DNA of 64,000 nucleotides, from the NCBI GenBank assembly GCA_934271715.1, contig CAKQRZ010000001.1, positions 18,819 through 82,818 on the forward strand, written 5' to 3'. Below are positions 179-56,084 of this stretch, piece by piece. The stretch comes from an uncultured Alphaproteobacteria bacterium. Its GTDB lineage: Bacteria > Pseudomonadota > Alphaproteobacteria > RF32 > CAG-239. A program made the translations under genes and the position numbers. The notes below the pieces were generated by a model, which searched no databases, had not been told where the DNA came from, and worked only from the letters and a program-made list of their open reading frames with translations. Within the stretch, counting starts at the first letter, position 1, and every line of letters begins with the position of its first letter.

Positions 179-778
179 ATGAATACGGCAAATGAAAATG
201 GTCGCAGTATGATAGAAATGCTGGGCGTTCTGGCAATTATCGGCGTGCTGAGCGTCGGCGGTTTCAGCATGGTTAATAAAATGCAGACTTCTTATGAAAT
301 CAATCAGGTTTTAGACGCCGCCGGCGAGCTGGCAACCCGCACCCGCAATGTGATGCGCAACTATGATTTGGATGATGACAACAGCTCCAAAAACACTTCT
401 ATGAATGAATATCTGCTAAAAGCCAAAGCGGTGCCGGATGTATTTCTAAATTCGGGCGAATTTGAAGTCGGCGATGTAACCTATAACGTGCAGTATTTGG
501 GCGACAGCGTTACCTTTGTGGTGCAGGTGCAGAATCTGACCGAAGAAATGTGCATGCAAATGGTAACAACCAACTGGGGCGGACCAGGCACCAGCGGATT
601 TTTAGGCATGTCGGTTGACGATAGCGCAAATTCGGTTAATGAGGCTATAAAAAACAAAAGTTCGGGTTCTGCCACCGTTGCTCTTATCGGCAGCGCAGAC
701 CATCCGGCGCCTATGGGCATCGGTTCGGCAGCCACGGCTTGCGGCGATGGAAAAACTGTTAACCTGTCATTTAGATAA
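179..778 (+). CDS. Type IV pilin / pseudopilin-like protein with a canonical short leader (MNTANENG|RSMIEML)
   Basis: RBS aggag lies 7 nt upstream of the ATG. The N-terminus has a prepilin cleavage/methylation motif: Gly at -1, Glu at +5, then a hydrophobic helix LGVLAIIGVLSVGG that is shared with seven other genes in the window. Confidence 0.8.
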   Translation: MNTANENGRSMIEMLGVLAIIGVLSVGGFSMVNKMQTSYEINQVLDAAGELATRTRNVMRNYDLDDDNSSKNTSMNEYLLKAKAVPDVFLNSGEFEVGDVTYNVQYLGDSVTFVVQVQNLTEEMCMQMVTTNWGGPGTSGFLGMSVDDSANSVNEAIKNKSSGSATVALIGSADHPAPMGIGSAATACGDGKTVNLSFR

Positions 779-2426: not shown

Positions 2427-2846
2427 CTATAGTGTATAAAATTTTTTTTCGGCAGGAGAAAATGTTTTTGAAGAACAGATTGAATATTTTACTTTTGTCT
2501 GAATAGCTTCAGGCAGAGTGCCAATTATTTTAAATTTTCCATTATTATACAACTCGTTAATTTGTTGCTTTTCAATTTTTTGCATACCGCTTTTACCGCA
2601 ATGAATGCAGCAATTTTTAGTTAATTCTTCAGGCCAATCTTTTGTTGATAACTCTACAACTGAGGCTGCATCATATCTTGCGCGCAGTTTTACTTTTTCT
2701 ACTTTTGAAGTAATGTATAAATATTCCATTGTTTCGGCGTTTACCATTATAATTAAGCGATGCTCTTTATCGCTGCCTATGGGGAAGAGCGCCTTGTAAA
2801 CTTTCCATCTGTCCAATGGAATCATCTTAAATGGCAAATCAATCAA
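2427..2846 (-). CDS. Hypothetical protein. It is the downstream partner of a Panacea-domain gene, overlapping it by 8 nt, and is a candidate toxin.
   Basis: 139-aa ORF that overlaps 2839..3441 by 8 nt in the same orientation. I recognise no family. Confidence 0.4.
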   Translation of the reverse strand: MIDLPFKMIPLDRWKVYKALFPIGSDKEHRLIIMVNAETMEYLYITSKVEKVKLRARYDAASVVELSTKDWPEELTKNCCIHCGKSGMQKIEKQQINELYNNGKFKIIGTLPEAIQTKVKYSICSSKTFSPAEKKFYTL

Positions 2847-3441
2847 TTTTATCTCTTAACGCATTTAAAAAATCTTCGTCCATGGTAAATACATCGTCAT
2901 GCAAGCCTTTTGTTTTAGATTTTTCTAAAGTATCAGGGTTTAGTAAAAAGTCTTTTTCATCCATTAAAAAACGATTTCCATCAACACCCAATTTTTTCTC
3001 AAATTTTTTCCATTCTGGGTAATCATGTGAAATATCACTCAAATCAAATTGGCAGAACTTTCCAAAATTTGAAATAGAAAAATCCAAAGCTTCTTTAAAA
3101 CTTTCTGAAAGTTCATCATCACTTTGTGGTTTAATATAAACAGAATATTCATCAAGACTTTCAACGTCTTTTAATAAATTTGCATCCGAAACTGCTGCAC
3201 ACTCAGGCAATTTATTATTCATAATGTCTTTAGCAGCAGAGGCAACAGGTCCGTTTTTCATTGCGTAATAAGAATCATCAGAAGCTAAGCATCCATAATG
3301 CCGCATATGATAACGATCTGCAAAGAATAAAATTTTTAAAAAATACATAACAGTTTGCTTGCTGTTGTTTGTAGCAGGAGCATGGTTTTGAATATAAAAA
3401 AGCGCTTGCAAAATTTTGCGCATAGAAATTGTATAAGACAT
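2839..3441 (-). CDS. Panacea-domain (DUF4065, SocA-like) antitoxin-like protein
   Basis: The N-terminus KILQALFYIQNHAPATNNSKQTVMYFLKILFFADRYHMRHYGCLASDDSYYAMKNGPVASAAKDIM resembles the DUF4065/Panacea signature (KLQKLLYYAQ...GPV). The C-terminus is acidic. Confidence 0.5.
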   Translation of the reverse strand: MSYTISMRKILQALFYIQNHAPATNNSKQTVMYFLKILFFADRYHMRHYGCLASDDSYYAMKNGPVASAAKDIMNNKLPECAAVSDANLLKDVESLDEYSVYIKPQSDDELSESFKEALDFSISNFGKFCQFDLSDISHDYPEWKKFEKKLGVDGNRFLMDEKDFLLNPDTLEKSKTKGLHDDVFTMDEDFLNALRDKID

Positions 3442-3522: not shown

Positions 3523-4308
3523 TTATTCCATTTCTACAGTAACTGAGCAGCTTTCGGTTGCGCCTGTGCATTTTTTGCAAACTTCATTGATTTGCTGAGG
3601 GGTAATGCTTGTTAAACACTGTTTATTAGAATCCTTGCAATATTTGTCGCCATACCAATAATTTGCGGAGTCATTATTACCTTTGCCGGAGCGCCATACA
3701 CCGGTAAATCTGATAAAGCTGTGCAATGGCGTAAAAACATTAGCCATGATTTCTTCGCAGAATTTTGAAGAAAATGCCGGAGTTGTGGCAGCTCCGTCTG
3801 CGTCATAGTTTGCACCGCCTATTTCTATGCTGAATACAACTCTGTTCCAGCGGGAAAATAAAGCGCTGTTGTTGCCGTAAGCATCTAAAAAAGATGTGTT
3901 GTGATATGCGGCGGCGTTTTGTTCTATAGGCCAATTATCAGGGACTAAGCCTAAGGCTTGTATGGTATCAGCTATGCCGTATACATCGCCTCCGGAATTT
4001 AGTTTTTTAAAGTCTGAAAGATGTTCTACTAACCCCTGCACAAGCTGGTTATATTCTCCGACTGCCTTGGTTAGCTTAAATTTTTCCATGGCTTTGGAAT
4101 AACCTGCGATTCCGCCGACTGATAATACGCCGATAATCGCCAGAACGCCGAGCATTTCTATCATACTCCGCCCGGATTGAGAATAAGCACTTACTCTGCG
4201 TCCCCGGCACCAGTCATTCTTGGGTTTATCCCAAGAATCTTCTCTCAACCAACACTTATGCAATAATAAGGCTAATTTATTGACTAGGTTAGGGACTCGC
4301 TGCAACAA
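3523..4308 (-). CDS. Type IV pilin-like protein with an A-module 5' region. The pilin frame is open upstream to 4506, and the ATG at 4515-4517 is 2 nt out of frame.
   Basis: Mature N-terminus ...SQSG|RSMIEMLGVLAIIGVLSVGGIAGYSKAMEKFK. The C-terminal Cys-rich tail is CKKCTGATESCSVTVEME. The annotated start at 4308 is a TTG artefact of the ORF track. Confidence 0.75.
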   Translation of the reverse strand: MLQRVPNLVNKLALLLHKCWLREDSWDKPKNDWCRGRRVSAYSQSGRSMIEMLGVLAIIGVLSVGGIAGYSKAMEKFKLTKAVGEYNQLVQGLVEHLSDFKKLNSGGDVYGIADTIQALGLVPDNWPIEQNAAAYHNTSFLDAYGNNSALFSRWNRVVFSIEIGGANYDADGAATTPAFSSKFCEEIMANVFTPLHSFIRFTGVWRSGKGNNDSANYWYGDKYCKDSNKQCLTSITPQQINEVCKKCTGATESCSVTVEME

Positions 4309-4480
4309 GATTCTAGGTACAAGACCTAGAATGACTGGTGCTTGAGGCGCTAGCTTAGTGCCGTCTGTTATTTTAGTTTTTACTGTATTATTTCCGAAAG
4401 TGTTATTTTTTCTACCAAACCCTGCAAAAATGTGCTGAACAGCAGAAAAAGTGCCTTTAATCAGATGTTTAGGGTTTGCA

Positions 4481-4494
4481 GAGAGAGAGAGAGA
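4481..4494. repeat. (GA)7/(CT)7 dinucleotide tract between the A-module ATG and the pilin reading frame
   Basis: Direct reading: gca gagagagagagaga cc. The ATG frame reads MKNKLFKGLSLSLQTLNI* and the pilin frame is shifted by +2. Confidence 0.9.
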
Positions 4495-4553
4495 CCTTTG
4501 AATAGCTTATTTTTCATATTTCTTTCCTCTTAAATTATGTTGTTTACACTCCA

Positions 4554-4584
4554 ATTCTATAACAGGCACGCTCAATATGTCAAT
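4554..4584 (-). promoter_or_regulatory. Sigma70-like promoter of A-module (TTGACA-N18-TAGAAT)
   Basis: On the minus strand: TTGACAtattgagcgtgcctgttaTAGAAT, then about 35 nt, the RBS aagaggaaag and the ATG at 4517. The promoter is conserved in module copies at 26.6 kb, 39.1 kb and 55.07 kb. Confidence 0.55.
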
Positions 4585-7370: not shown

Positions 7371-8000
7371 ATGCCGGATTGGAAAATTGAAGACGGACAC
7401 CGCGGTTTGATTTGCGGAATTGACGAGGCGGGGCGAGGCCCTTGGGCGGGGCCGGTGGTGGCCGGAGCGGCGGTGTTTTTAACGCGTGAAGTCAGCCCGG
7501 AACTGTTAGCGCAGCTTAATGATTCTAAAAAACTTTCAGCTAAAAAAAGAGAATATTTGTATGAACTTTTGCGGCAGGAAGAGCAAGCCGGACATATTTT
7601 GTGCGGCATAGGCGAGGCGAGTGCGGCGGAGATAGACGAGCTGAATATTTTGCAGGCGACATTTATGGCAATGCGCCGCGCGGTGGAAAATTTGCCGCAA
7701 AAACCGGATATCGCGCTGATAGACGGCAACCGGTTGCCTAAGGATTTTCCGTGTGCTAATGAATGTTTTATCGGCGGCGACGGGCGCTCATATTCTATTG
7801 CCGCGGCCAGTATTTTAGCCAAAGTTTACCGTGACCGGCTGATGAGCGAGATGGCAAAGCAGTATCCGCATTACGGCTTTGAAAAAAACGCCGGTTACGG
7901 CACTAAAGCGCATATAGAAGGCTTGCGGCAATATGGAGTGACGCCGCAGCATCGGCGCAGCTATCGCCCGATTAAAGAGTTTTTAGCAACCGGAAAATAA
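7371..8000 (+). CDS. rnhB: Ribonuclease HII
   Basis: GIDEAGRGPWAGPVVAGA and IDGNRLP motifs. Confidence 0.85.
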   Translation: MPDWKIEDGHRGLICGIDEAGRGPWAGPVVAGAAVFLTREVSPELLAQLNDSKKLSAKKREYLYELLRQEEQAGHILCGIGEASAAEIDELNILQATFMAMRRAVENLPQKPDIALIDGNRLPKDFPCANECFIGGDGRSYSIAAASILAKVYRDRLMSEMAKQYPHYGFEKNAGYGTKAHIEGLRQYGVTPQHRRSYRPIKEFLATGK

Positions 8001-8124
8001 ATCCGGCTTGCATTTTGCAATAAAGTGCAGTATAAAGCTTTTTGTGTGAAATGGAGTTGTACACAAGTTGTACACTAACTGATTGGAAAATTATTAAGTC
8101 ATTGTTTTTACTAACAATATTGTT

Positions 8125-8201
8125 GCAGGCGTAGCTCATCAGGATAGAGCGACTTCCTCCTAAGAAGTAGGCAGGCGGTTCGAGTCCGCCCGCTTGTACC
8201 A
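8125..8201 (+). tRNA. tRNA-Arg (anticodon CCT)
   Basis: Cloverleaf: D-stem GCTC/GAGC, anticodon stem ACTTC/GAAGT with loop ctCCTaa, T-arm GGCGG-TTCGAGT-CCGCC, and a 3' ACCA. The acceptor stem has two G-U pairs. Confidence 0.75.
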
Positions 8202-8365
8202 TTTAGCTTTTCCGCCCTTTCATTTAGTTGAGTTGTATATATTACCATACCATGGTTACCATGCAGTGGCTTTTTCCATTAAGGCATTTTTTATAAGCTT
8301 CATCAATTTCCGTCAATGTCATATTTATAAAATATGCAAAATCAAAGCATAGGAAAAGCCGGAAA

Positions 8366-8541
8366 TGTGTAAAAAAAACGACCGTTTAAAAGGGACAGTT
8401 TTTAGGCTGTTTTTAGTAATGTATCACGGTTTGCTGCAAAATGCAATAACATAATAATTTTGCGTTATTTTTTTCATAATTTTGCAACATTTCAGCAGCT
8501 TGTTTTGAGTGTGTAAAAATAACGGTCGTTTTTTTTACACA
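8366..8541 (+). repeat. B-module element bounded by 21-bp perfect inverted repeats (tgtgtaaaaaaaacgaccgtt ... aacggtcgttttttttacaca), copy 1
   Basis: Inverted repeats at 8366-8386 and 8521-8541. It is followed by taataggaggaataagATG and the conserved 18 codons. Similar copies lie at 26687-26862 and 55125-55300; the inverted repeats are identical in all three, while the internal segment diverges. Confidence 0.8.
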
Positions 8542-8557
8542 TAATAGGAGGAATAAG

Positions 8558-10195
8558 ATGTTGAAGAGTATGAATTTTTTAAGAGGAAAGAGCAGGGAAA
8601 GAGTAAGTGGAGGCGGCACTTCCGTTTGCAGCGTCATTCTTCGCCGGTACTCCCAGCTGGAAGTACCATGGCGGAGAATCCATAACGTCATTGCGCATGC
8701 AATGTCAGTATGCGTTGCCGTTGGCAACAAAGTCATGGATACTCGTCTGCCACAGCCTGCGGGGTGTGGCGACAAGTATGACGTTTCGGGTCGGTGCCGG
8801 GGACGAGGGGTTAGTGCATTTAGCACCTTTACTATTAAAGCAATGTCAATATTAGCATTTCTTTGCTTATTCGCAACCGCGGCGGAGGCGAAGATTTGCT
8901 TTTTGCCGGACGGCAGCTGCGGCACTAGTAAAACAACCGGATTTAAGCAGAATCCAAACGGAAGCGGATGTATGTATAAATCGGAAGCTGAAGCCCGAAA
9001 CGGCTTAGGCGCCTGCGAAACCACATATAAGCAAAACATGTGCTATTATCGGCGCTGCAAGACTGAAGACAATAATATATTTGCAGACGAGGCAAGCTGC
9101 AAAAAGAAAGCCAAAGCAGATAATTTAATCTGCGTAAGCTGCGGCGGCTGCTATAAAGTTACGCCGAAAACATGCCCGAGTGGGTACACGGCAGGCTTAA
9201 CCGCCTGCGCAGAAAAAGCAGGCTATACGGCAAGTTATTCAAGCAACGGCTATGTAGGATATAGCGTCTGCGGCAAGTGCAAATATACCATAAAATCATG
9301 TGAAAGCGGCTATACTGTGGGCTTGGCCAGCTGTCCGGAAAAACAAGGTTATACTTCTAACTATTCCAGAAACGGAGTTTCCGGCGAGCAGGTCTGCGGC
9401 AAGTGCGACTACACGGCAAAGAGCTGTGCCGGAGGTTATACAGCGGGTCTGACAAGCTGCAGCGAGCGCCAAGGCTACACAGCAAGTTTAGTCAGCAATG
9501 GCTATGCCGGGGAGTTGGCTTGCGGAAAATGCAGTTATACGGCAAAAAGCTGTGCCGGAGGTTATACAGCAGGTCTGACAAGCTGCAGCGAACGGCGCGG
9601 CTATAATGCAAGCTATGCCAGCAACGGGTATGCCGGTGAGAAAATTTGCGGAAAATGCGACTATACGGCAAGAACTTGCCCAGATGGATATTCTACAAGA
9701 TATAGCAGCGTCAGCGCCTGCGGAAAAACAGGAAGTAACGGCTGGAATTATTATACTAATGGCTATTCAGGGGAAGCTGTGTGCGGGCAATGTAAAAGTA
9801 AAGCCTGTCCTAATGGGTATACTTGTACGTATTCTAGTAATATCAAGGCTCCTTGTAATAAAAGTATGGGATGTCCAGGCGATAGTGGGTATTATATTTA
9901 TGGTGGTATATTGGAACTAGGCTGGAGTAATGGATGTTTTGAGCGAGGGTATTATGTATATGTTATCTCTAATCGTTGCGGAGACGGGGTATGTGTCAGC
10001 AAATATGCAGCACGCACATGTCCTAGTGGTACAATGTTAAGAGATAGTGTAGATAATATTTATATATATTGCCAAAATAAAAATGCTACATCTTTTTGGG
10101 ATAAATATAATTGGTCGGCAAGGGCTGCAAAAGATGCAAACGGAGATACAGTTTGTTCAGGTTCAGAAATATGTATGGAATGCTATAAAAAATAA
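8558..10195 (+). CDS. Cys-rich tandem-repeat secreted protein with a B-module N-terminal extension. The signal-peptide-like MSILAFLCLFATAAEA starts at 8822.
   Basis: The ATG at 8558 (RBS aggagg) reads the conserved MLKSMNFLRGKSRERVSGGG and runs in frame, with no stop, into a signal peptide and five roughly 42-aa repeats of the form K.C..GYTAGLTSC.E..GYTAS..SNGYAGE..CGKC.YTA. At DNA level the repeats have a 126-bp period (9416-9541 and 9542-9667 are near-identical). Confidence 0.6.
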   Translation: MLKSMNFLRGKSRERVSGGGTSVCSVILRRYSQLEVPWRRIHNVIAHAMSVCVAVGNKVMDTRLPQPAGCGDKYDVSGRCRGRGVSAFSTFTIKAMSILAFLCLFATAAEAKICFLPDGSCGTSKTTGFKQNPNGSGCMYKSEAEARNGLGACETTYKQNMCYYRRCKTEDNNIFADEASCKKKAKADNLICVSCGGCYKVTPKTCPSGYTAGLTACAEKAGYTASYSSNGYVGYSVCGKCKYTIKSCESGYTVGLASCPEKQGYTSNYSRNGVSGEQVCGKCDYTAKSCAGGYTAGLTSCSERQGYTASLVSNGYAGELACGKCSYTAKSCAGGYTAGLTSCSERRGYNASYASNGYAGEKICGKCDYTARTCPDGYSTRYSSVSACGKTGSNGWNYYTNGYSGEAVCGQCKSKACPNGYTCTYSSNIKAPCNKSMGCPGDSGYYIYGGILELGWSNGCFERGYYVYVISNRCGDGVCVSKYAARTCPSGTMLRDSVDNIYIYCQNKNATSFWDKYNWSARAAKDANGDTVCSGSEICMECYKK

Positions 10196-25353: not shown

Positions 25354-25610
25354 ACTCGTCTAATGCAGAAACTCGCCTAATGGCTTTCTGCTGGTAAGAT
25401 TTTTTCTTATGTACTAGTTTGTACACCGCGAAAAAATCTTACTTCGCATTAAGCTCATTATCCGAGTTTCTGCATGCTTGTACCGGTTGTGCTTGTGTAC
25501 CTCGTTGTATACTGCGAAAAAATCTTCGTATTAGCCTCATTATCCGCATTGCTTGACAGAGTGTGCTATTTAAAACCACGCCCCGTAAGGAGGTAAATAA
25601 TATTAGCCAA

Positions 25611-26339
25611 TTAAAATGTCAATACAACGGCACAGGCATCATCTTTAGCACATCCGGAACAATATTTGTTTATATCAGATAAAGATAATTGATTAAAACA
25701 TTTTTTATCGGCACCGTTGCAATAACTATCCCCATAAAAAGCGACAGCTATAGGAAATATCAAAACATATTTTAAGGATGAGTGTAAAGGAGTTGCTATA
25801 TTTTGCACAAACTTTTCACATAAGCTATGAGAAAAATTTGCAGATACAGATTTTCCATCCTCATTTGTTACCCAGCCGCCTAGGTACATATCAAATACTA
25901 AGTCATTGCTGCGAAGGTAAATATTGAAATAATTGCCTAAATTGTCGTGTAAATATGGCCATTCAGGCGGAAGCAGATTTATATTTCTAAAAAATTCATT
26001 AAAATGTGTGCCATTTTTTTGTTTTTTTATGTATTGCAGGTGTTCTGTTATGCCAAAAAGTATATGAGAATAACCATCAATAGCTTTATTGATTTTGTAT
26101 TGCTCCATAGCTTTGGAATATCCGGCAATCCCGCCCACGCTCAACACGCCGATAATGGCCAGCACGCCAAGCATTTCTATCATACTGCGGCCGGATTGAG
26201 AAAAAGTACCATACCTGCGTCCCCAGCACCCATCATTCTTTGGTTTATCCCAAGAATCTTGTGTGAACCAGCTTTTATTTAATAATAAGGCTAATTTGTT
26301 GACTAGGTTAGAGACTCGTTGCCACAAGATTCTAGGCAC
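25611..26339 (-). CDS. Type IV pilin-like protein with an A-module 5' region. The frame is open upstream to about 26576, and the ATG at 26585-26587 is out of frame.
   Basis: ...YGTFSQSG|RSMIEMLGVLAIIGVLSVGGIAGYSKAMEQYK. The C-terminal tail is CSGCAKDDACAVVLTF. Confidence 0.75.
   Translation of the reverse strand: MPRILWQRVSNLVNKLALLLNKSWFTQDSWDKPKNDGCWGRRYGTFSQSGRSMIEMLGVLAIIGVLSVGGIAGYSKAMEQYKINKAIDGYSHILFGITEHLQYIKKQKNGTHFNEFFRNINLLPPEWPYLHDNLGNYFNIYLRSNDLVFDMYLGGWVTNEDGKSVSANFSHSLCEKFVQNIATPLHSSLKYVLIFPIAVAFYGDSYCNGADKKCFNQLSLSDINKYCSGCAKDDACAVVLTF
26164..26291. repeat. 128-bp inverted repeat, left arm. It is 127/128 identical to 27023-27150 in inverse orientation.
   Basis: The reverse complement of 26164-26291 equals 27023-27150 except for one C/T difference. 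The arm covers the pilin leader/N-terminus coding region of both divergent genes. Confidence 0.9.
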
Positions 26340-26550
26340 AAGGCCTAGAATGACAGGTACTAGAGGCGCAGACTTAGTGTTGGTTAATAGATTGCTTCGC
26401 TTTGCTCGCAGTGACGGCAGAGCAAGAGGCGAGCCTGTTAGTTTTGTTCTTAATGCGTTATTACCGAAAGTATCATTTTTTCTGCCAAATCCTGTAAAAA
26501 CGTGCTGAACGGCAGAAAAAGCGCCTTTAATCAGATGTTCAGGATTTGCA

Positions 26551-26564
26551 GAGAGAGAGAGAGA
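26551..26564. repeat. (GA)7/(CT)7 tract of the A-module
   Basis: Direct reading. The ATG frame reads MKNKQSKGLSLSLQILNI*. Confidence 0.9.
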
Positions 26565-26624
26565 CCTTTGGATTGCTTATTTTTCATCTTTCTTTCCTCT
26601 ATATTTAAGTTATTTTATACCTTT

Positions 26625-26654
26625 ATTCTACAACAGCCTCACTCCATAAGTCAA
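26625..26654 (-). promoter_or_regulatory. Sigma70-like promoter of the A-module (TTGACT-N18-TAGAAT)
   Basis: Minus strand: TTGACTtatggagtgaggctgttgTAGAAT. Confidence 0.55.
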
Positions 26655-26686
26655 CCGTAAAATCAAAGCATTGGAAGAATCGGAAG

Positions 26687-26862
26687 TGTGTAAAAAAAAC
26701 GACCGTTTAAAATGGACAGTTTTTAGGCTGTTTTTAGTAATGTAGCAGAGGTTGTTAAAATTTGCAATAACTTTTTATATTTGCGATGTTTTTTGCGGTT
26801 TTATAAAAATTTACAGCGTCTTGTTTTGAGTGTGTAAAAATAACGGTCGTTTTTTTTACACA
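26687..26862 (+). repeat. B-module IR-bounded element, copy 2
   Basis: Inverted repeats at 26687-26707 and 26842-26862, followed by taataggaggaataagATG at 26879. Confidence 0.8.
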
Positions 26863-26878
26863 TAATAGGAGGAATAAG

Positions 26879-27760
26879 ATGTTTAAGAGTATAGAATTTT
26901 TAAGAGGAAAGAGCAGGGGGAGAGTAGGTGGATGCGGTGGACTCTCGCCTCTAGCACCAGTCATTCTAGGTCTTGTACATAGAATCCTATTGCAACAAAT
27001 CTCTAACCCAGTCAATAAATTTGCCTTATTATTAAATAAAAGCTGGTTCACACAAGATTCTTGGGATAAACCAAAGAATGATGGGTGTTGGGGACGCAGG
27101 TATGGTACTTTTTCTCAATCCGGCCGCAGTATGATAGAAATGCTTGGCGTATTAGCTATAGTAGCTGTTCTCTCAGTCGGCGGGATTGCTGGATATTCCA
27201 AAGCTATGGAAAAGTGGAAAGAAAATAAAGTCATCGGCGAATACAGTTACTTAATACAGGGAATTATAGAGCATTTGAGCGACTTTGAAAAACTGAAAGA
27301 CGAGGAAGTCCGCTATGATTTATTGCCGACCTTAGCGGCAATGAATTTGCTCCCCGGCAACTGGAAAAATACAGACGAATATGAAGGGCATAAAAATGTA
27401 TCAGATACCTTAGGCAATACTTTGTCTGTTTTCAGCCGCAGCGACAGAGTGGTTATGACTATATTGTTTGGCGCTAGTTCGGTTTCCGAAAGCGGAGATA
27501 CCGTTTCGCAAACTTTTTCCGGACAATTATGCAAAGCATTTTGGCAAAATATTTTAGTTCCCTTACATAATCAAATTTATTATGCAGGAGTTTATCGCAG
27601 TAAATATTATGAGCGTGCAAATTATTATTTTAATGATAAATATTGCGGCGGCAAAAATCAATGCTTCAGTGAAATCAAATTGAATGATATAGAAAGAATA
27701 TGCAGCGCCTGCGCTTCCGGGGAAGAATATTGCGTGCTTACTTGGGAGTTTGATTATTAG
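26879..27760 (+). CDS. Type IV pilin-like protein with a B-module N-terminal extension, in frame
   Basis: MFKSIEFLRGKSRGRVGG...(81 aa)...SQSG|RSMIEMLGVLAIVAVLSVGGIAGYSKAMEKWK. The C-terminal tail is CSACASGEEYCVLTWEFDY. Confidence 0.75.
   Translation: MFKSIEFLRGKSRGRVGGCGGLSPLAPVILGLVHRILLQQISNPVNKFALLLNKSWFTQDSWDKPKNDGCWGRRYGTFSQSGRSMIEMLGVLAIVAVLSVGGIAGYSKAMEKWKENKVIGEYSYLIQGIIEHLSDFEKLKDEEVRYDLLPTLAAMNLLPGNWKNTDEYEGHKNVSDTLGNTLSVFSRSDRVVMTILFGASSVSESGDTVSQTFSGQLCKAFWQNILVPLHNQIYYAGVYRSKYYERANYYFNDKYCGGKNQCFSEIKLNDIERICSACASGEEYCVLTWEFDY
27023..27150. repeat. 128-bp inverted repeat, right arm
   Basis: See 26164-26291. Confidence 0.9.
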
Positions 27761-27990
27761 AATGTAAAAAAGCCGGATTCAAATTAATGAAACCGGCACT
27801 TACTCTCGGAAACTCGGATAATGAGGCTAATACGCATTAACTTTTTTGCGCCGTGTACAAACTAGTACACAATAGACTAGCAGAAACTCGTATAGCGGGC
27901 GTAGATGCGACGGAATTTTTAAGCGACGTGTACACAATAGTACACAAGCGCAAAAATCCCTAGCAGATACCAGCTAGACGAGTTTCTTCA

Positions 27991-36468: not shown

Positions 36469-37422
36469 ATGGCAACAGTAAATGATACAGAATTTTCGGA
36501 TATTTATATTATTCCGGATGGCACGGCCTACATTTGGGGGCGTCAGACACCAAGCGGATTGATTCAGGTTCAACCGGATGATTATGATGAATTTTTGCAA
36601 CAAGTTATGAATACATATGACGGTCATAATCCAAGTTATCAAGTAAAATTTAAAGGTTTGAACTACCGTGTTGAAAGAACCGTAACGCTGGAAGGACAGC
36701 AATACTGCGCCCGTAAAATGCCTCACTCTGTGCCGGATATTAACAAACTTGGTATAGAAGAACATTTGCTCAAATACTTAAAATCACTAAGCGGCGCTCC
36801 CGGACTTATTTTGCTTGCCGGTACAACCGGTTCCGGTAAAACCACCACTCTATCAGCTTTGCTGCGTGAATTTTTGATTCGCGACGGCGGCTATGCTTTT
36901 ACGCTGGAAGACCCGGTGGAAATGCCGCTGGACGGCACTTATCATACGGTAAACGGCGAGCTTGGCATTTGCAAACAGATGACGCCTCCGGGAGGTTCTT
37001 GGGAAGCCGGTCTGAAATCAATGCTGCGTTCTAAGCCGCGTTATGTATATCTGGGTGAGATTCGTGACCCTGAAATTGCCTCTGAAGCTTTGCGTGCAGC
37101 TATTTCAGGCCACCTTGTTATGTCCACAATTCACGCCAGCACCGTTACTGATGCTATTCAGTCTATTGTAAAATACGCCGCGGCAACCGGTATTTCCGAA
37201 GAAATGGCCTATGACTTGGTGGGCAACGGTATTTTGGCGGTGCTGCACCAAAGCTTGGTCGGCGTTCCTAAGCGCGCTAAAATTGAATATGTGTTTGCTA
37301 ATCCGGACGGCTCTAAAGGCGACCAAGTGCGCGGTATTATCAAAAGCGGCAAGATGAACTTGTCTACCACGATTGAAACTCAGCGCATTCGTTTGTCACG
37401 CGGCGTGCCGTTGTTTGAATAA
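36469..37422 (+). CDS. PilT/PilU-family secretion ATPase (type IV pilus retraction ATPase-like), short form
   Basis: Walker A GTTGSGKTTT, Asp box TLEDPVE, Walker B YVYLGEIRD and His box HLVMSTIHA. At 317 aa it is shorter than canonical PilT. Confidence 0.65.
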   Translation: MATVNDTEFSDIYIIPDGTAYIWGRQTPSGLIQVQPDDYDEFLQQVMNTYDGHNPSYQVKFKGLNYRVERTVTLEGQQYCARKMPHSVPDINKLGIEEHLLKYLKSLSGAPGLILLAGTTGSGKTTTLSALLREFLIRDGGYAFTLEDPVEMPLDGTYHTVNGELGICKQMTPPGGSWEAGLKSMLRSKPRYVYLGEIRDPEIASEALRAAISGHLVMSTIHASTVTDAIQSIVKYAAATGISEEMAYDLVGNGILAVLHQSLVGVPKRAKIEYVFANPDGSKGDQVRGIIKSGKMNLSTTIETQRIRLSRGVPLFE

Positions 37423-38209: not shown

Positions 38210-38890
38210 CTAAGGCCAGAGATGAATGGAATAGTGCGCCGCACCGCTGCTTTTAGACAATATGTGGCAGCGTTTTTGAATATCGCTCAGTTTGGCGTCG
38301 GCTAAATCTGTATAGTTAAATAGTATAGCATCATTCACCCCTTCTCCAAAATTTTGCCTAAAATTTGATTTCTTAATTTCCAGTGCTACCGGTTGGATTG
38401 CTAAGACTAAATTGCGGCAAAATTCTTCATTATCCTGCGGCAGATAGGCGTCTTTATTAGCCATAAAATATATTTCCATAACATAATATTTACAGTCTTT
38501 CATATTATATTTATGGATTTCTATATGGTTTCCGCTTTTATCATAAATGGCGTTATTTTCAAAAGTTGTTCCCTCCGGCAGATATCCAAGGTCATTAACT
38601 AAATATGTGATATTTTGAAAGTCTCCTAAATTGCTGCCGAGTTTGGGCTTGATTTCTATCATTGCATGAATAAGTTCTGTAATCATATTGCGCTGAATGT
38701 TTGATTTCCACATATTCATAGCTTTAGAATATCCGGCAATCCCTCCAACAGACAGAACAGCTATTATCGCCAATACACCCAGCATTTCTATCATACTTCT
38801 TCCAAAAAAATTTGCGCCTCTGCCGCCAGTCATCCTAGGCCGTGACGCACGGTCTGTGCCTAGGATCTTGTCGCACCAAGGGCGGTGCAA
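38210..38890 (-). CDS. Type IV pilin-like protein with an A-module 5' region. The frame is open upstream to about 39056, and there is an internal in-frame ATG (leader MTGGRGANFFG).
   Basis: ...RPRMTGGRGANFFG|RSMIEMLGVLAIIAVLSVGGIAGYSKAMNMWK. The C-terminus contains Cys. Confidence 0.75.
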   Translation of the reverse strand: MHRPWCDKILGTDRASRPRMTGGRGANFFGRSMIEMLGVLAIIAVLSVGGIAGYSKAMNMWKSNIQRNMITELIHAMIEIKPKLGSNLGDFQNITYLVNDLGYLPEGTTFENNAIYDKSGNHIEIHKYNMKDCKYYVMEIYFMANKDAYLPQDNEEFCRNLVLAIQPVALEIKKSNFRQNFGEGVNDAILFNYTDLADAKLSDIQKRCHILSKSSGAAHYSIHLWP

Positions 38891-39029
38891 ACCCTCTCCC
38901 TCAAGGGGCGAGGTTGTTAGTTTACTTCTTAATGCGTTATTACCGAAAGTGTTATTTTTTCTGCCAAACTCTGTAAAAACGTACTGAACGGCAGAAAAAG
39001 CGCCTTTAATCAGATGTTCAGGATTTGCA

Positions 39030-39045
39030 GAGAGAGAGATAGAGA
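39030..39045. repeat. Interrupted CT/GA tract of an A-module: (GA)5-TA-GAGA, 16 nt
   Basis: gca gagagagagatagaga cc. It is 2 nt longer than the other four copies and is still out of frame. Confidence 0.9.
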
Positions 39046-39105
39046 CCTTTGGATTGCTTATTTTTCATCTTTCTTTCCTCTTATTTTAAGTTATTTTACA
39101 TTTTT

Positions 39106-45095: not shown

Positions 45096-45929
45096 TTAAA
45101 AAGTCATAACAATATGGCACCACGGAGATTTATCTGTACAAGATTTACACATCTCATCAATTTTATTTAAGGTAAGTTCGTTAAGACATTTATTTTCTCC
45201 GCCGCAATAATTGTCTCCATAATATGCGTAGTCCGAAGCCACCGTATGACGATAAAAACTGACATAATATAGGGCGCTATGCAAAGGTTTCATTACATTA
45301 TTGTATAGAGCTCGGCAATATTCAAGATTAGTTTTGTCCGGCAGAATTATACCCTTTTGTTGGTCAATAATACCTATTTCAAAAACCAAATGGCCGTTGC
45401 GAACAAAAGGCCAAACCCAATGATTTTGGGAATCAATAAGCGTAAGTCCCGAATTAGACCATGTTGTTGGAGTTAAATTTGCAGCAATGGCAAATTCAGT
45501 TAAATAGAGCTGAGAACCGTTTGAATTTAATTTTTCATAGTCTGGCAGATGCTCAATCAATCCGGTAATAAAATAAGTGTATTCTTCTATAATTTTATTG
45601 ACCTTAAATTTTTCCATTGCTTTGGAATATCCGGCGATGCCGCCGACTGATAGAACACCAATAATCGCCAGAACGCCCAGCATTTCAATCATTGACCGAC
45701 CGGCTGAAACCGCGTATAGCGGCGCATCTAAAGCAGTTTTACGCTGTCTCAAAAAATTCATGTACCTCCAATGTACACTAGGATTTTTTTCGCAGCTAGA
45801 AACCACTTTATCTACACCACTCTCCGCAGTTTCGAGGAGTTTTGAGGTGTATTGACGCACGACATCCAAACCCTTAAATGTGATGTTGTTTCTTTCGGCG
45901 TCATTGCGAGGAGTGTAACGACGAAGCAA
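45096..45929 (-). CDS. Type IV pilin-like protein with an A-module 5' region. The frame is open upstream to 46082, and the ATG at 46091-46093 is out of frame.
   Basis: ...YAVSAG|RSMIEMLGVLAIIGVLSVGGIAGYSKAMEKFK. An internal in-frame M would give a 21-aa leader. The C-terminal tail is CKSCTDKSPWCHIVMTF. Confidence 0.75.
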   Translation of the reverse strand: MLRRYTPRNDAERNNITFKGLDVVRQYTSKLLETAESGVDKVVSSCEKNPSVHWRYMNFLRQRKTALDAPLYAVSAGRSMIEMLGVLAIIGVLSVGGIAGYSKAMEKFKVNKIIEEYTYFITGLIEHLPDYEKLNSNGSQLYLTEFAIAANLTPTTWSNSGLTLIDSQNHWVWPFVRNGHLVFEIGIIDQQKGIILPDKTNLEYCRALYNNVMKPLHSALYYVSFYRHTVASDYAYYGDNYCGGENKCLNELTLNKIDEMCKSCTDKSPWCHIVMTF

Positions 45930-46056
45930 TCCAGAACCCTTTATAGAGTAGCTACTGAATGTGTTTTTTCCGAATGTGTGATTTTTTGCGCCGAACTCTG
46001 CAGAAACACGCTGAGCGGCGAAAAATGCGCCTTTAATCAGATGTTTAGGATTTGCA

Positions 46057-46070
46057 GAGAGAGAGAGAGA
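46057..46070. repeat. (GA)7/(CT)7 tract of an A-module
   Basis: Direct reading. The ATG frame reads MKNKLFKGLSLSLQILNI*. The pilin frame reads ...SLSLSANPKHLIKGAFFAAQRVSAEFG... Confidence 0.9.
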
Positions 46071-46251
46071 CCTTTGAATAGCTTATTTTTCATCTTTCTT
46101 TCCTCTTATTTTAAGTTAACTACGACATTTATTTTAACTAAATAAAACCGGAAAGTAAAGATAATTTTGGTATCGTCATGCGTTGTTTTAAGTGTCAGTA
46201 AAAACAGTAAAAGCCTGTCTTTTATAAGACAGGCTTTTAAAAAGGATTTGT

Positions 46252-54177: not shown

Positions 54178-54804
54178 TCATACATTATTATCAAAAAGGA
54201 TTTGAATTAAACAGTAATCGTCTTTGCAGATTTTACAAGCTTCGCTGACTTCCGGCAAATTATAATCTTCTCTTACGCATTCAGCAACAGCATAATCTGC
54301 CGGTCTGGCATTTCCGCAGATTCTATAATCCCAACTGCTGCATGTTCCGCTGCACAATACTATAGTCCAAATAATATCAGTATAAACCGGCAATAAATGG
54401 AATAATTCGCGGCAGTTATATTCGGCTATACTGTTTGGCAATATTTCAAATTGTAAATTTAAACGAGTGTAAATATCATAAGGTTTCATAGTAACAGATA
54501 CTCTGTTTCTAAACAAATCTCTGTTATCATCATCTAACAAGCCTTGAGGCACAATGCCGATTTCTTTTAAGGTGGGCAGAATGTCTTCACTGCGTTTTCC
54601 ATATTGTTTTTCTAATTTATATGTATCTTTGATGTTAAAAATCAGCTCTTCTACTTGCTGAATCCATTTATCTTGCTTCCACTTCTCCATAACCTTGGAA
54701 TAACCGGCGATTCCACCTACTGATAATATACCAACAATCGCCAGAACTCCGAGCATTTCAATCATGCTTCTCCCTAAGAAATTTGCGCTTCTAGCACTCG
54801 TCAT
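54178..54804 (-). CDS. Type IV pilin-like protein with an A-module 5' region. The frame is open upstream to about 55014, and an in-frame ATG gives the short leader MTSARSANFLG.
   Basis: MTSARSANFLG|RSMIEMLGVLAIVGILSVGGIAGYSKVMEKWK. The C-terminal tail is CKICKDDYCLIQILFDNNV. Confidence 0.75.
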   Translation of the reverse strand: MTSARSANFLGRSMIEMLGVLAIVGILSVGGIAGYSKVMEKWKQDKWIQQVEELIFNIKDTYKLEKQYGKRSEDILPTLKEIGIVPQGLLDDDNRDLFRNRVSVTMKPYDIYTRLNLQFEILPNSIAEYNCRELFHLLPVYTDIIWTIVLCSGTCSSWDYRICGNARPADYAVAECVREDYNLPEVSEACKICKDDYCLIQILFDNNV

Positions 54805-54988
54805 ACTAGGCCCTGTGCCTAGTATCTTGTGGCACCAAGGGCGGTGTAATCCATCGCCCCGTGAGGGAGAGGTTATTATTTTTGTTCTTAATGCGTTATT
54901 TCCGAAAGTATCATTTTTTCTGCCAAACCCTGCAAAAACGTGCTGAACAGCAGAAAAAGTGCCTTTAATCAGATGTTCAGGATTTGCA

Positions 54989-55002
54989 GAGAGAGAGAGA
55001 GA
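54989..55002. repeat. (GA)7/(CT)7 tract of an A-module
   Basis: Direct reading. Confidence 0.9.
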
Positions 55003-55062
55003 CCTTTGCTTAGCTTATTTTTCATCTTTCTTTCCTCTTATTTTAAGTTAATTTACATCTTT

Positions 55063-55124: not shown

Positions 55125-55300
55125 TGTGTAAAAAAAACGACCGTTTAAAAGGGACAGTTTTTAGGCTGTTTTTAGTAATGTAACAGAGGTTGCTAAAATT
55201 TGCAATAACTTTTTATATTTGCGATGTTTTTTGCAGATTTGTGAGACTTTTCAGCGTCTTGTTTATAGTGTGTAAAAATAACGGTCGTTTTTTTTACACA
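55125..55300 (+). repeat. B-module IR-bounded element, copy 3
   Basis: Inverted repeats at 55125-55145 and 55280-55300. An internal putative promoter TTGCTA-N18-TATATT lies at 55209-55238. Confidence 0.8.
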
Positions 55301-55316
55301 TAATAGGAGGAATAAG

Positions 55317-56084
55317 ATGTTGAAGAGTATAGAATTTTTAAGAGGAAAGAGCAGGGGAAGAGTAGGTGGATTGCTTCGCTGCACTCGCAATGACGGTGCA
55401 GGTAACGGCGAGGGATTGCACCGCCCTGGGTGCGACAAGATCCTAGGCACAGACTGTGCGTCACGGCCTAGGATGACTGGTGGCAGAGGCGCAAATTACT
55501 TTGGCCGCAGTATGATAGAAATGCTGGGAGTTCTCGCAATTATCGGAGTGCTGAGTGTCGGCGGAATTGCCGGATATTCTAAAGCTATGATGATGTGGAA
55601 AGTTGATAAATGGAGTGCCGGGTTAATTCAAATGATGCAGGAAGCGCAAACTCTGTATTTGAATCAAAAATCATTCGGCGATACTGTGAAAATTATCACT
55701 CCTCAGCTGGTAGATACCGGAGTTATTCCGCAGGGAATGCTGGATGAAAATTACCGCGATATGTTCGGCAATCGGCTTACTGTTTTAACTCGTTATTGGG
55801 ATGTGTTTGGACTTCGCCTGAATGTTTATCATGAAATGCCTGCCGGTAAAGACGCGGTGGAATGCTGTAAAAAGCTATATGAGATGGGACAGCAGTTTCC
55901 CAGCAACTGGGTAGTAGTAACTGAAAATTTCGGCTATTCAGTCTGCGGCAGAGCGGCGCCGGATAGTTATGTGCAGGCGATGGGCTGTCAGCCTTATAGT
56001 TTAGCTAAGGTCGCAGAACTGTGCAAAAATTGCGAAACCAATAACTGCAATATAATATTTTTATTGGATAATACTAAATATTAA
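55317..56084 (+). CDS. Type IV pilin-like protein with a B-module N-terminal extension
   Basis: MLKSIEFLRGKSRGRVGG...RPRMTGGRGANYFG|RSMIEMLGVLAIIGVLSVGGIAGYSKAMMMWK. The C-terminal tail is CKNCETNNCNIIFLLDNTKY. Confidence 0.75.
   Translation: MLKSIEFLRGKSRGRVGGLLRCTRNDGAGNGEGLHRPGCDKILGTDCASRPRMTGGRGANYFGRSMIEMLGVLAIIGVLSVGGIAGYSKAMMMWKVDKWSAGLIQMMQEAQTLYLNQKSFGDTVKIITPQLVDTGVIPQGMLDENYRDMFGNRLTVLTRYWDVFGLRLNVYHEMPAGKDAVECCKKLYEMGQQFPSNWVVVTENFGYSVCGRAAPDSYVQAMGCQPYSLAKVAELCKNCETNNCNIIFLLDNTKY

Follow-up and report, generated by a model that had tools for sequence, protein, structure and literature searches.

In Neisseria, the opa genes have CTCTT pentamer repeats in the region that codes for the signal peptide, and few of the loci are ON at once. 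In Helicobacter pylori, sabA, sabB and hopZ are among the genes with 5′ CT dinucleotide repeats. The switching of oipA by CT repeats in its 5′ region has been described (PMC10564699). A CT tract is also present in the gene considered here, a pilin-like gene on the minus strand at 3523..4517 of a 64,000-nucleotide (nt) stretch, termed the window, from an uncultured Alphaproteobacteria bacterium of the RF32 group (CAG-239; assembly GCA_934271715.1, contig CAKQRZ010000001.1, positions 18,819 to 82,818). The gene belongs to a large family, for which the best explanation, and on balance a probable one, is that its pilin-like proteins are switched by the CT tract and are made with translated, cleavable leaders composed of a mosaic of palindromes resembling repetitive extragenic palindromic (REP) sequences.

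The likeness to H. pylori oipA/hopH is in the position of the tract a few codons after the start, within what would be an N-terminal secretion leader, in the setting of ON or OFF by repeat number, and in the occurrence of several paralogous surface-protein genes each with a tract of its own. What differs is the cargo, which is pilin-like here, the size of the family, far larger at tens of copies per genome, the OFF state of nearly all copies, and the repeat mosaic of 54 to 300+ codons after the tract. The opa genes are likewise a multi-copy surface family of complete loci, each independently switched by a pyrimidine repeat in the leader coding sequence, but their repeat is a pentamer, their signal peptide is of ordinary length and there is no palindromic mosaic. 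Short palindromes are known from Rickettsia palindromic elements (RPE), which occur in frame in coding genes, and from REP sequences, REPINs (paired REP sequences that form hairpins) and bacterial interspersed mosaic elements (BIME) (PMC10969869).

The CT tract and the start codon

The segment 3523..4517 is one complete gene, and not a leader alone, with its ATG at 4517, its stop codon at 3525-3523, and 344 nt from the ATG to the Gly of the motif G|RSMIEML, where the bar marks the predicted cleavage site (Table 1). Family members with a tract are termed A copies, and those of the window are distinguished by the position of the Gly codon. Every A ATG is preceded by a promoter-like site, TTGAC(A/T)-18-TAGAAT (at 26654-26625 for c26192), and by a Shine Dalgarno (SD) sequence, AAGAGGAAAG. 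This ATG, the sole SD-preceded one in the A copies, is upstream of the tract, a T(CT)n run that begins at codon 8-9 after it and whose number of units sets the reading frame. In none of the five window copies does it share the pilin frame: the offset is 2 nt in the four with a 15-nt tract and 1 nt in c38803, whose 17-nt tract is interrupted. The gene is in frame when the tract has 13 or 19 nt (6 or 9 CT units) and out of frame when it has 15 or 17 nt (7 or 8 units).

Related DNA was found with a 26-nt piece of the conserved block of the leader, which gave 41 stretches from four gut metagenome-assembled genomes (MAGs), labelled uncultured Alphaproteobacteria but for one mislabelled Bacteroidaceae, and 53 metagenome contigs; all the sequences compared are consensus assemblies. 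Over all loci the tract is 15 nt long in 68 copies, 17 nt in 17, 13 nt in six and 9 nt in one, and the frame offset between ATG and pilin is −1 in 68 copies, +1 in 17 and 0 in six. Such variation in the offset makes a fixed programmed frameshift unlikely. Three of the 13-nt copies, L039, L042 and L074, have an intact open reading frame (ORF) that starts at the SD-preceded ATG, MKNKLFKGLSLSANPKHLIKG..., takes in G|RSMIEML and covers the whole pilin. The database proteins P0123 and P0127, which begin MKNKLFKGLSLSLSANP, represent the form with nine CT units, whose 19-nt tract likewise keeps the frame. [The protein-database search with the in-frame A leader yielded seven short proteins only and was informative just for the (CT)9 forms; the full-length ON proteins known from DNA were absent from it, presumably by a limit of the word index.]

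When 122 complete pilin genes were clustered at a body identity of at least 95%, orthologues that differ by one CT unit were present in three clusters: L002/L074 and c45701/L039 (15 vs 13 nt), and L050/L067 (15 vs 17 nt). The c45701 gene and its orthologue in L039 are 99.4% identical, but in L039, with its 13-nt tract, the gene is ON and its leader is shorter by 192 nt. L046 at first seemed to hold an orthologue, but two neighbouring genes had been mis-paired there, and it was excluded. The tract pattern fits a slipped-strand phase-variation (contingency) switch, for which the tract is the candidate. Read from the DNA as assembled, the five window copies are OFF, and would need a changed number of CT repeats for expression.

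The open leader and its palindromic mosaic

The first-pass annotation, made from the letters of the window, had noted that the segment ahead of G|RSMIEML begins with a conserved block, SLSLSANP(K/E)HLIKG...FGNN, and is open in the pilin frame in all five A copies to a degree beyond what nucleotide identity would guarantee. The block is indeed present in all five, and the openness extends well beyond them. Leader length was measured on DNA patterns only, blind to frame, between the Gly codon and a fixed codon in the A or B block. It is divisible by 3 in 76 of 77 leaders (window and 94 related loci) over a range of 90-909 nt and some 45 distinct lengths. In the first set, comprising the window and the genome loci, this holds for 38 of 38 leaders, whose 2839 codons include no stop in the pilin frame; the other two forward frames have 163 and 232 stops, and the three reverse frames 96, 89 and 189. 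In the second set, from the metagenome contigs, 38 of 39 leaders are in frame and open, the exception being the frameshifted L061. Pilin bodies that are 95-100% identical have leaders that differ by 63, 123, 132, 180 or 192 nt, all multiples of 3. Lengths divisible by 3, together with a single stop-free frame, mean that the open frame is under selection; judged by these counts, the openness is far beyond chance and no by-product of nucleotide identity.

The length of 135-150 codons first given for the leader was too high, since the measured values are 111 codons here and 128, 87, 127 and 80 in the other A copies; A and B copies together have leaders of 62-128 residues in the window and of up to about 316 elsewhere. 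Frame and length conservation, the in-frame SD-preceded ATG of the B copies described below, and the intact MKNK...G|RSMIEML ORFs of copies with 13-nt tracts support the conclusion that the leader is an ORF continuous with the pilin and would be translated whenever the gene is expressed. The proposal of a translated leader is thus upheld, with the amendment that none of the five A copies is translatable from its own start as assembled. In-frame ATGs 10-21 codons before the Gly, to which attention had also been drawn, do exist but were rejected as starts: they have no SD sequence, in three of the four copies they belong to inverted GTCAT hairpins (as the ...ATGAC head), and leaders of the commonest type contain no ATG downstream of the tract. 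For the in-frame ATG of c45701 (YMNF) no link to a hairpin head was traced.

The rest of the leader, beyond the conserved A or B block, is put together from a limited repertoire of modules that recur in varied number and order, and many of these are small DNA palindromes with a GTCAT head. One of them, module X, has two inverted hairpins round a spacer, in the manner of a REPIN, and folds as one long hairpin (z = −3.2); the full leader of a B copy shows no unusual stability (z = +0.4). An anchor outside the 5′ hairpin was used to gather its copies, as a guard against circular selection. In this GTCAT hairpin, GTC-ATTCTAGGY-CTTGT-RCCTAGAAT, paired cells make up 98% of the total, and both sides have changed in 5 of 9 pairs. 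None of 500 shuffles reaches the observed pairing or covariation score, and one of the 500 reaches the both-sides-changed count. What appears in the protein as covariation of ILGLVPRI and ILCLVHRI is the base pairing of the DNA hairpin. The 3′ arm of module X has a TTGGG/CCCAA stem; by inspection of the sequence, a perfect inverted copy of the 5′ arm there would give an in-frame TAG, so that the arms appear adjusted toward an open frame.

The modules share with REP sequences and REPINs a short imperfect palindrome, a conserved head, compensated stems and the inverted doublet seen in module X, and with RPE the presence of a palindromic repeat in frame within coding sequence; like them, they seem to be tolerated in ORFs only in an open orientation and phase. 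Unlike REP sequences, they are not extragenic: the window copies all lie inside eight leader ORFs, as do 46 of the 46 blastn matches to leader sequence, none being elsewhere in the 64 kb. They further differ in being concatenated into mosaics and confined to what would be the cleavable N-terminal leader of cassette-driven secreted proteins, and no RAYT (REP-associated tyrosine transposase) or Y1-transposase domain was seen among the window ORFs scanned. Rfam gave no leader match beyond chance miRNA-hairpin matches, and Pfam and NCBIfam gave no domain match in the leader. A stretch of 52 nt at 2296-2347, after the stop codon of the ORF at 798-2282, is 75% identical to 45714-45765, the HWRYMNFLRQRK module of the c45701 leader; it is the sole hint of a leader module outside a leader, and may be due to chance.

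A test of codon periodicity had been proposed in the first-pass annotation, which held that its absence would tell against a translated pro-region. With 39 distinct copies of the A block, and the pilin N-terminus of the same loci as positive control, the block proved to be flat, its heterozygosity by codon position being 2.9/4.1/3.9, and its dN/dS of 0.46 is no better than the 0.84 and 0.42 of the wrong frames. The pilin N-terminus has heterozygosity of 5.0/3.9/14.2 and a dN/dS of 0.08, vs about 2 in wrong frames. Since the A block has no codon periodicity, its peptide sequence is not what is conserved, and a pro-region in the sense of a functional domain is unsupported. In an AlphaFold model built on 34 family members, leader residues 1-83 have a confidence score (pLDDT) below 50 and the rest is confident; the mean net charge of the leader is about +7. 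What these comparisons point to is conservation of frame, nucleotide sequence and hairpins, and not of amino-acid sequence, so that the leader reads as a translated spacer.

The protein that follows has a long N-terminal alpha helix packed on a beta sheet, which is the pilin fold. Its start, G|RSMIEMLGVLAIIGVLSVGGIAG, has what is expected of a type IV pilin: Gly at −1, Glu at +5 and, past the cleavage site, a run of about 20 hydrophobic residues. An alignment of 34 members shows no variation at G, R, S, E, M, L, G, V and L. The best weak profile matches of the family are all to pilin or pseudopilin families, and a Foldseek search gave no match. The protein is taken to be type IVb-pilin-like, with predicted cleavage at the Gly. 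Type IVb pilins (CofA, TcpA, BfpA, Salmonella/R64 PilS) have leaders of about 13-30 residues. The A and B leaders are far outside this range, and outside the short-leader range of about 5-30 residues for pilins in general, into which only the 8-residue leader of the family member at 179-778 falls; Arg at +1 is a further difference, as are scores below threshold with prepilin models. Pfam scans of about 55 window ORFs, in which a nearby type IV pilus operon or site-specific recombinase was considered, gave no recombinase, no prepilin peptidase and no PilB, PilC or PilQ. The only pilus or secretion-machinery gene detected was that of a small T2SSE-family ATPase (317 aa, 36469-37422, plus strand; PF00437, E 2e-32), which adjoins the pilin copy c38803.

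Cassettes, cargo and rival explanations

The window has eight G|RSMIEML genes: five minus-strand A copies (with the Gly codon at 4173, 26192, 38803, 45701 and 54774), two plus-strand B copies (27122 and 55503), and one member with an ordinary leader (Table 1). The complete genes in the data number 68 of A type and 13 of B type, and one MAG alone, from an uncultured alphaproteobacterium of the human gut, has tens of A blocks. B-type homologues in the protein database number hundreds, predicted from MLKSMNFL... and with leaders of up to about 268 residues (P0045).

Table 1. Position of the gene at 3523..4517, its parts and the related features of the window
Feature	Coordinates	Strand	Remarks
Sigma-70-like promoter TTGACA-18-TAGAAT, A cassette	4554..4583	-	11/12 positions match
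Shine Dalgarno sequence aagaggaaag	4522..4531	-	4 nt 5′ of ATG; read from sequence; kept in all A copies
ATG (4517-4515) and 18-codon out-of-frame ORF MKNKLFKGLSLSLQTLNI*	4461..4517	-	predicted product of the start as assembled, (CT)7
T(CT)7 dinucleotide tract, 15 nt	4480..4494	-	candidate slipped-strand switch; in frame at 13/19 nt
Pilin-frame open leader, 111 codons	4174..4506	-	conserved A block to ~4387, variable mosaic after
REPIN-like module X, translated APVILGLVPRILLQ...DSWDKPKNDW	4187..4361	-	GTCAT-hairpin arms 4307-4361 and 4187-4241, 65-nt spacer
Prepilin-type cleavage motif G|RSMIEML	4153..4173	-	Gly(-1) codon 4173-4171, Glu +5
Mature pilin-like protein and stop, 215 residues	3523..4170	-	long N-terminal helix and beta sheet, four conserved Cys
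Member with ordinary 8-residue leader, MNTANENG|RSMIEML	179..778	+	own SD; baseline form
A copy c26192	25611..26587	-	15-nt tract, out of frame, 128 open codons
A copy c38803	38210..39068	-	interrupted 17-nt tract, off by 1, 87 open codons
A copy c45701	45096..46093	-	15-nt tract, OFF, 127 open codons
A copy c54774	54178..55025	-	15-nt tract, out of frame, 80 open codons
B copy c27122	26879..27760	+	in-frame AGGAGG-ATG 26879, 81-residue leader MFKSIEFLRGKSRGRVGG..., holds module X
B copy c55503	55317..56084	+	in-frame AGGAGG-ATG 55317, 62-residue leader
B cassette and 95-codon leader with non-pilin cargo	8338..10195	+	in frame with Cys-rich tandem-repeat protein, ORF 8558-10195
Divergent A/B pair	26084..27230	.	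285-nt inverted arms 26084-26368 and 26946-27230, 86% complementary, round 577-nt double promoter/start cassette

The B cassette also heads a gene whose product is no pilin. The protein of the ORF at 8558-10195 (545 aa, no Pfam or NCBIfam match) has a leader of the same module types as the pilins, after which comes a Sec-like signal peptide, MSILAFLCLFATAAEA, whose first codon is an internal ATG (8844) without an SD sequence. The link of the long leader to prepilin peptidase that was first proposed is accordingly not specific, leaders of this type being found ahead of a Sec-type signal peptide as well. In both cases the extension is N-terminal to a cleavable hydrophobic segment, so that it would stay cytoplasmic and be removed, and insertions of repeats would be tolerated there.

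The A and B copies 26192/27122 and 54774/55503 are divergent pairs, each with one common intergenic block. In the first pair the inverted arms are made of module X and the pilin N-terminus, and the segment they bound is a candidate for cassette exchange. Near-identical bodies do occur behind different cassettes. L095, a contig of another sample, has an A cassette with a 17-nt tract ahead of the c27122 body (99.6% identical), which is followed by the same outer membrane protein and polA genes. Contig L096 has the c26192 body (100% identical) behind a B cassette, with the crossover in a stretch of about 125 nt that is identical in both arms. These swaps fit recombination or inversion through leader homology. 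Campylobacter fetus sap shows promoter inversion between opposed sapA homologues through conserved 5′ regions. As there, two divergent variant genes here have long inverted 5′ homology (the 285-nt arms) round a promoter segment, and a contig with a swapped junction exists (L096); unlike there, inversion is only a candidate, given that L096 is short and possibly chimeric, and the segment holds two different cassettes and not one promoter. The 3′ flanks of the same divergent pair (25407-25488 and 27791-27872) are inverted repeats of 82 nt with 78% identity, and in L095 the same 64 nt come after the c27122 body; besides the common 5′ cassettes, it seems, a 3′ module is also common to the pilin genes.

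Just 5′ of the B-cassette SD sequence is an AT-rich stem-loop, TGTGTAAAAATAACGGTCGTTTTTTTTACACA (26687-26863, and also 8366-8542 and 55125-55301), the 5′ half of which has a direct copy about 145 nt upstream. Repeats of 21 nt, TGTGTAAAAAAAACGACCGTT and AACGGTCGTTTTTTTTACACA, had suggested the ends of an invertible promoter in the B cassette. This was rejected: the internal segment is oriented alike in all 15 copies examined, and what looked like an inverted repeat copy is the 3′ half of the local stem-loop before the SD sequence.

In the proposed explanation each gene would be headed by a portable 5′ expression cassette. The A form would supply promoter, SD sequence, ATG and T(CT)n tract, slipped-strand mispairing in which would put the start in or out of the downstream frame (ON with 6 or 9 CT units, OFF with 7 or 8); the B form, with its in-frame ATG and no repeat tract, would be constitutive. 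Between cassette and G|RSMIEML would be the REP/REPIN-like palindromic mosaic of 54 to >300 codons. With the sole ribosome entry at the 5′ end, ribosomes would have to read through the mosaic, so that only stop-free arrangements divisible by 3 would survive. The resulting peptide, basic, probably unstructured and under little or no amino-acid constraint, would stay in the cytoplasm and be discarded at the prepilin peptidase cut (or, for the Cys-rich protein, that of signal peptidase), and it is by virtue of this disposal that the position would tolerate such insertions. The conserved nucleotides would act at the level of DNA or RNA, as phase switch and as repeated homology for the remodelling of leaders and for their exchange, with cassettes, between pilin bodies.

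Several observations weigh against this explanation. About 93% of the tracts are OFF and a single length, 15 nt, accounts for 75% of all tracts, which could reflect an ancestral fixed sequence and not active switching. In the consensus assemblies no within-population heterogeneity was seen, and (CT)6-9 is at the short end for efficient slippage. The L096 contig is of 939 nt with its junction in an exact repeat of about 125 nt, and could be an assembly chimera. A weak third-position excess in the middle of module X leaves room for some constraint at the peptide level. Curated prepilin models score below threshold, at 12-16 bits vs 16.3 to 21.2 (PF07963 at 15.9 bits vs a cut-off of 21.2, for 179-778 only; TIGR02532 at 12.4-14.6 bits vs 16.3), Arg at +1 is atypical, and we infer the cleavage at Gly. 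The Pfam scans of window ORFs found no prepilin peptidase gene. To our knowledge no leader of 60-300 residues is processed by prepilin peptidase; a literature search found none, and nothing relevant on the RSMIEML motif, on unusually long prepilin leaders, or on pili in RF32 Alphaproteobacteria.

The high proportion of OFF copies, including all five A copies of the window, is what would be seen if the A copies were a silent reservoir with a pilS-like role, their frame kept for gene conversion or inversion into B cassettes or into 179-778, an alternative that the first-pass annotation had itself raised. Neisseria pilS copies are without promoter, start codon and conserved N-terminal coding region. 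The Neisseria pilE/pilS system, with its neisserial intergenic mosaic elements (NIME) and Correia elements, has in common with the present family many scattered pilin variants, associated small repeats and evidence of exchange, and here the same body can be found behind different cassettes (L095, L096) and long inverted arms link the divergent A/B pairs. However, a near-consensus promoter-like site, a strong SD sequence and an ATG, none of which a pure donor needs, are present in every A copy; unlike pilS, the A copies also have the conserved N-terminal coding region; the repeats are inside the reading frame; A copies with intact in-frame ORFs exist; the one-CT-unit differences between orthologues are a signature of local switching; and no donor-to-recipient mosaicism has been demonstrated inside pilin bodies. 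A silent reservoir is in our judgement unlikely. Its defining features are missing, but the part of that proposal in which the conserved 5′ DNA provides homology for recombination does fit the cassette swaps in L095 and L096.

It is about as improbable that the frame is kept for the sake of the peptide, the leader being a functional pro-peptide that acts as chaperone, as a domain for assembly delay or sorting, or as a signal released in the cytoplasm. Strict frame conservation, an A block whose amino-acid sequence can be recognised from genome to genome, the weak third-position excess in mid-module X and the uniformly basic leader would all accord with it, but the A block has no codon periodicity and a dN/dS the same as in wrong-frame controls, and near-identical pilins have leaders that differ by whole modules, from 54 to >300 codons. 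The ILGLVPRI and ILCLVHRI covariation follows DNA-hairpin pairing and not protein chemistry, AlphaFold confidence is below 50 throughout the leader, the member at 179-778 works with a leader of 8 residues, and the same leader is found ahead of an unrelated secreted protein. Less probable still is that the hairpin mosaic is primarily an mRNA element, for stability, RNase III processing or structure-gated translation, with (CT)7 alleles expressed via ribosomal or transcriptional slippage. Compensatory changes do keep the hairpins, module X does form its long hairpin, and the AT-rich stem-loop before the B SD sequence is conserved; yet a programmed shift requires a constant offset between ATG and pilin, and the offset here takes three values, while a role in RNA alone leaves the single stop-free frame and the lengths divisible by 3 unexplained. 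The unremarkable stability of the whole B-copy leader and the lack of a matching Rfam family also argue against it.

Returning to the CT-switched family with translated repeat leaders, a more specific form of it is that the leader is a translation-tolerant platform for recombination and switching, in which the hairpins and the pilin N-terminus would be portable homology by which A and B cassettes are swapped or inverted among dozens of pilin bodies and other secreted proteins. On this view the mosaic would stay in frame for no other reason than its later removal. This we advance tentatively, with rather more doubt than confidence. If true, leaders of up to about 300 residues would be by far the longest processed by prepilin peptidase.

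A few A-cassette copies are decayed. In L061 there is a frameshift between leader and pilin (7990-8330), in L012 and L044 the leader ends in a stop, in L088 a deletion took the cleavage motif, and L022 is a remnant with no gene behind it. A-block matches among the loci from both DNA searches are often no more than 50 nt from a contig end; the repeats thus break short-read assemblies, and the number of copies per genome is underestimated. About 14 A-cassette pilin loci (L003, L007-L009, L015, L018 and others) are in CAVKTH01, titled 'Bacteroidaceae bacterium', a bin that is probably mislabelled or contaminated, its pilin loci being typical of alphaproteobacterial MAGs. Directly downstream of the pilin gene at 3523..4517, a SocA/Panacea-domain antitoxin-like gene (2839-3441) overlaps a hitless ORF of 139 aa (both within 2427-3441, minus strand), and the two may be a toxin-antitoxin pair.

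Known principles and a new combination

Simple-repeat phase variation and in-frame palindromic elements are known in principle. What is new is the combination, a very large pilin family with leaders of up to about 300 residues that are made of repeat DNA and, if the cleavage is as predicted, are cleavable. There is a practical consequence for annotation, in that gene callers start these genes at arbitrary internal codons or call 'hypothetical proteins' of 250-480 residues.

If the proposed explanation is true, the tolerated length of a type IV pilin leader would be extended about ten-fold, and the family would be a clear case in nature of a cleaved signal region that serves as a safe place for palindromic repeat DNA inside genes. 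A common uncultured group of human-gut Alphaproteobacteria would then vary its surface via a very large pilin repertoire, under the control of a CT-repeat switch of the kind used by gastric and mucosal pathogens.

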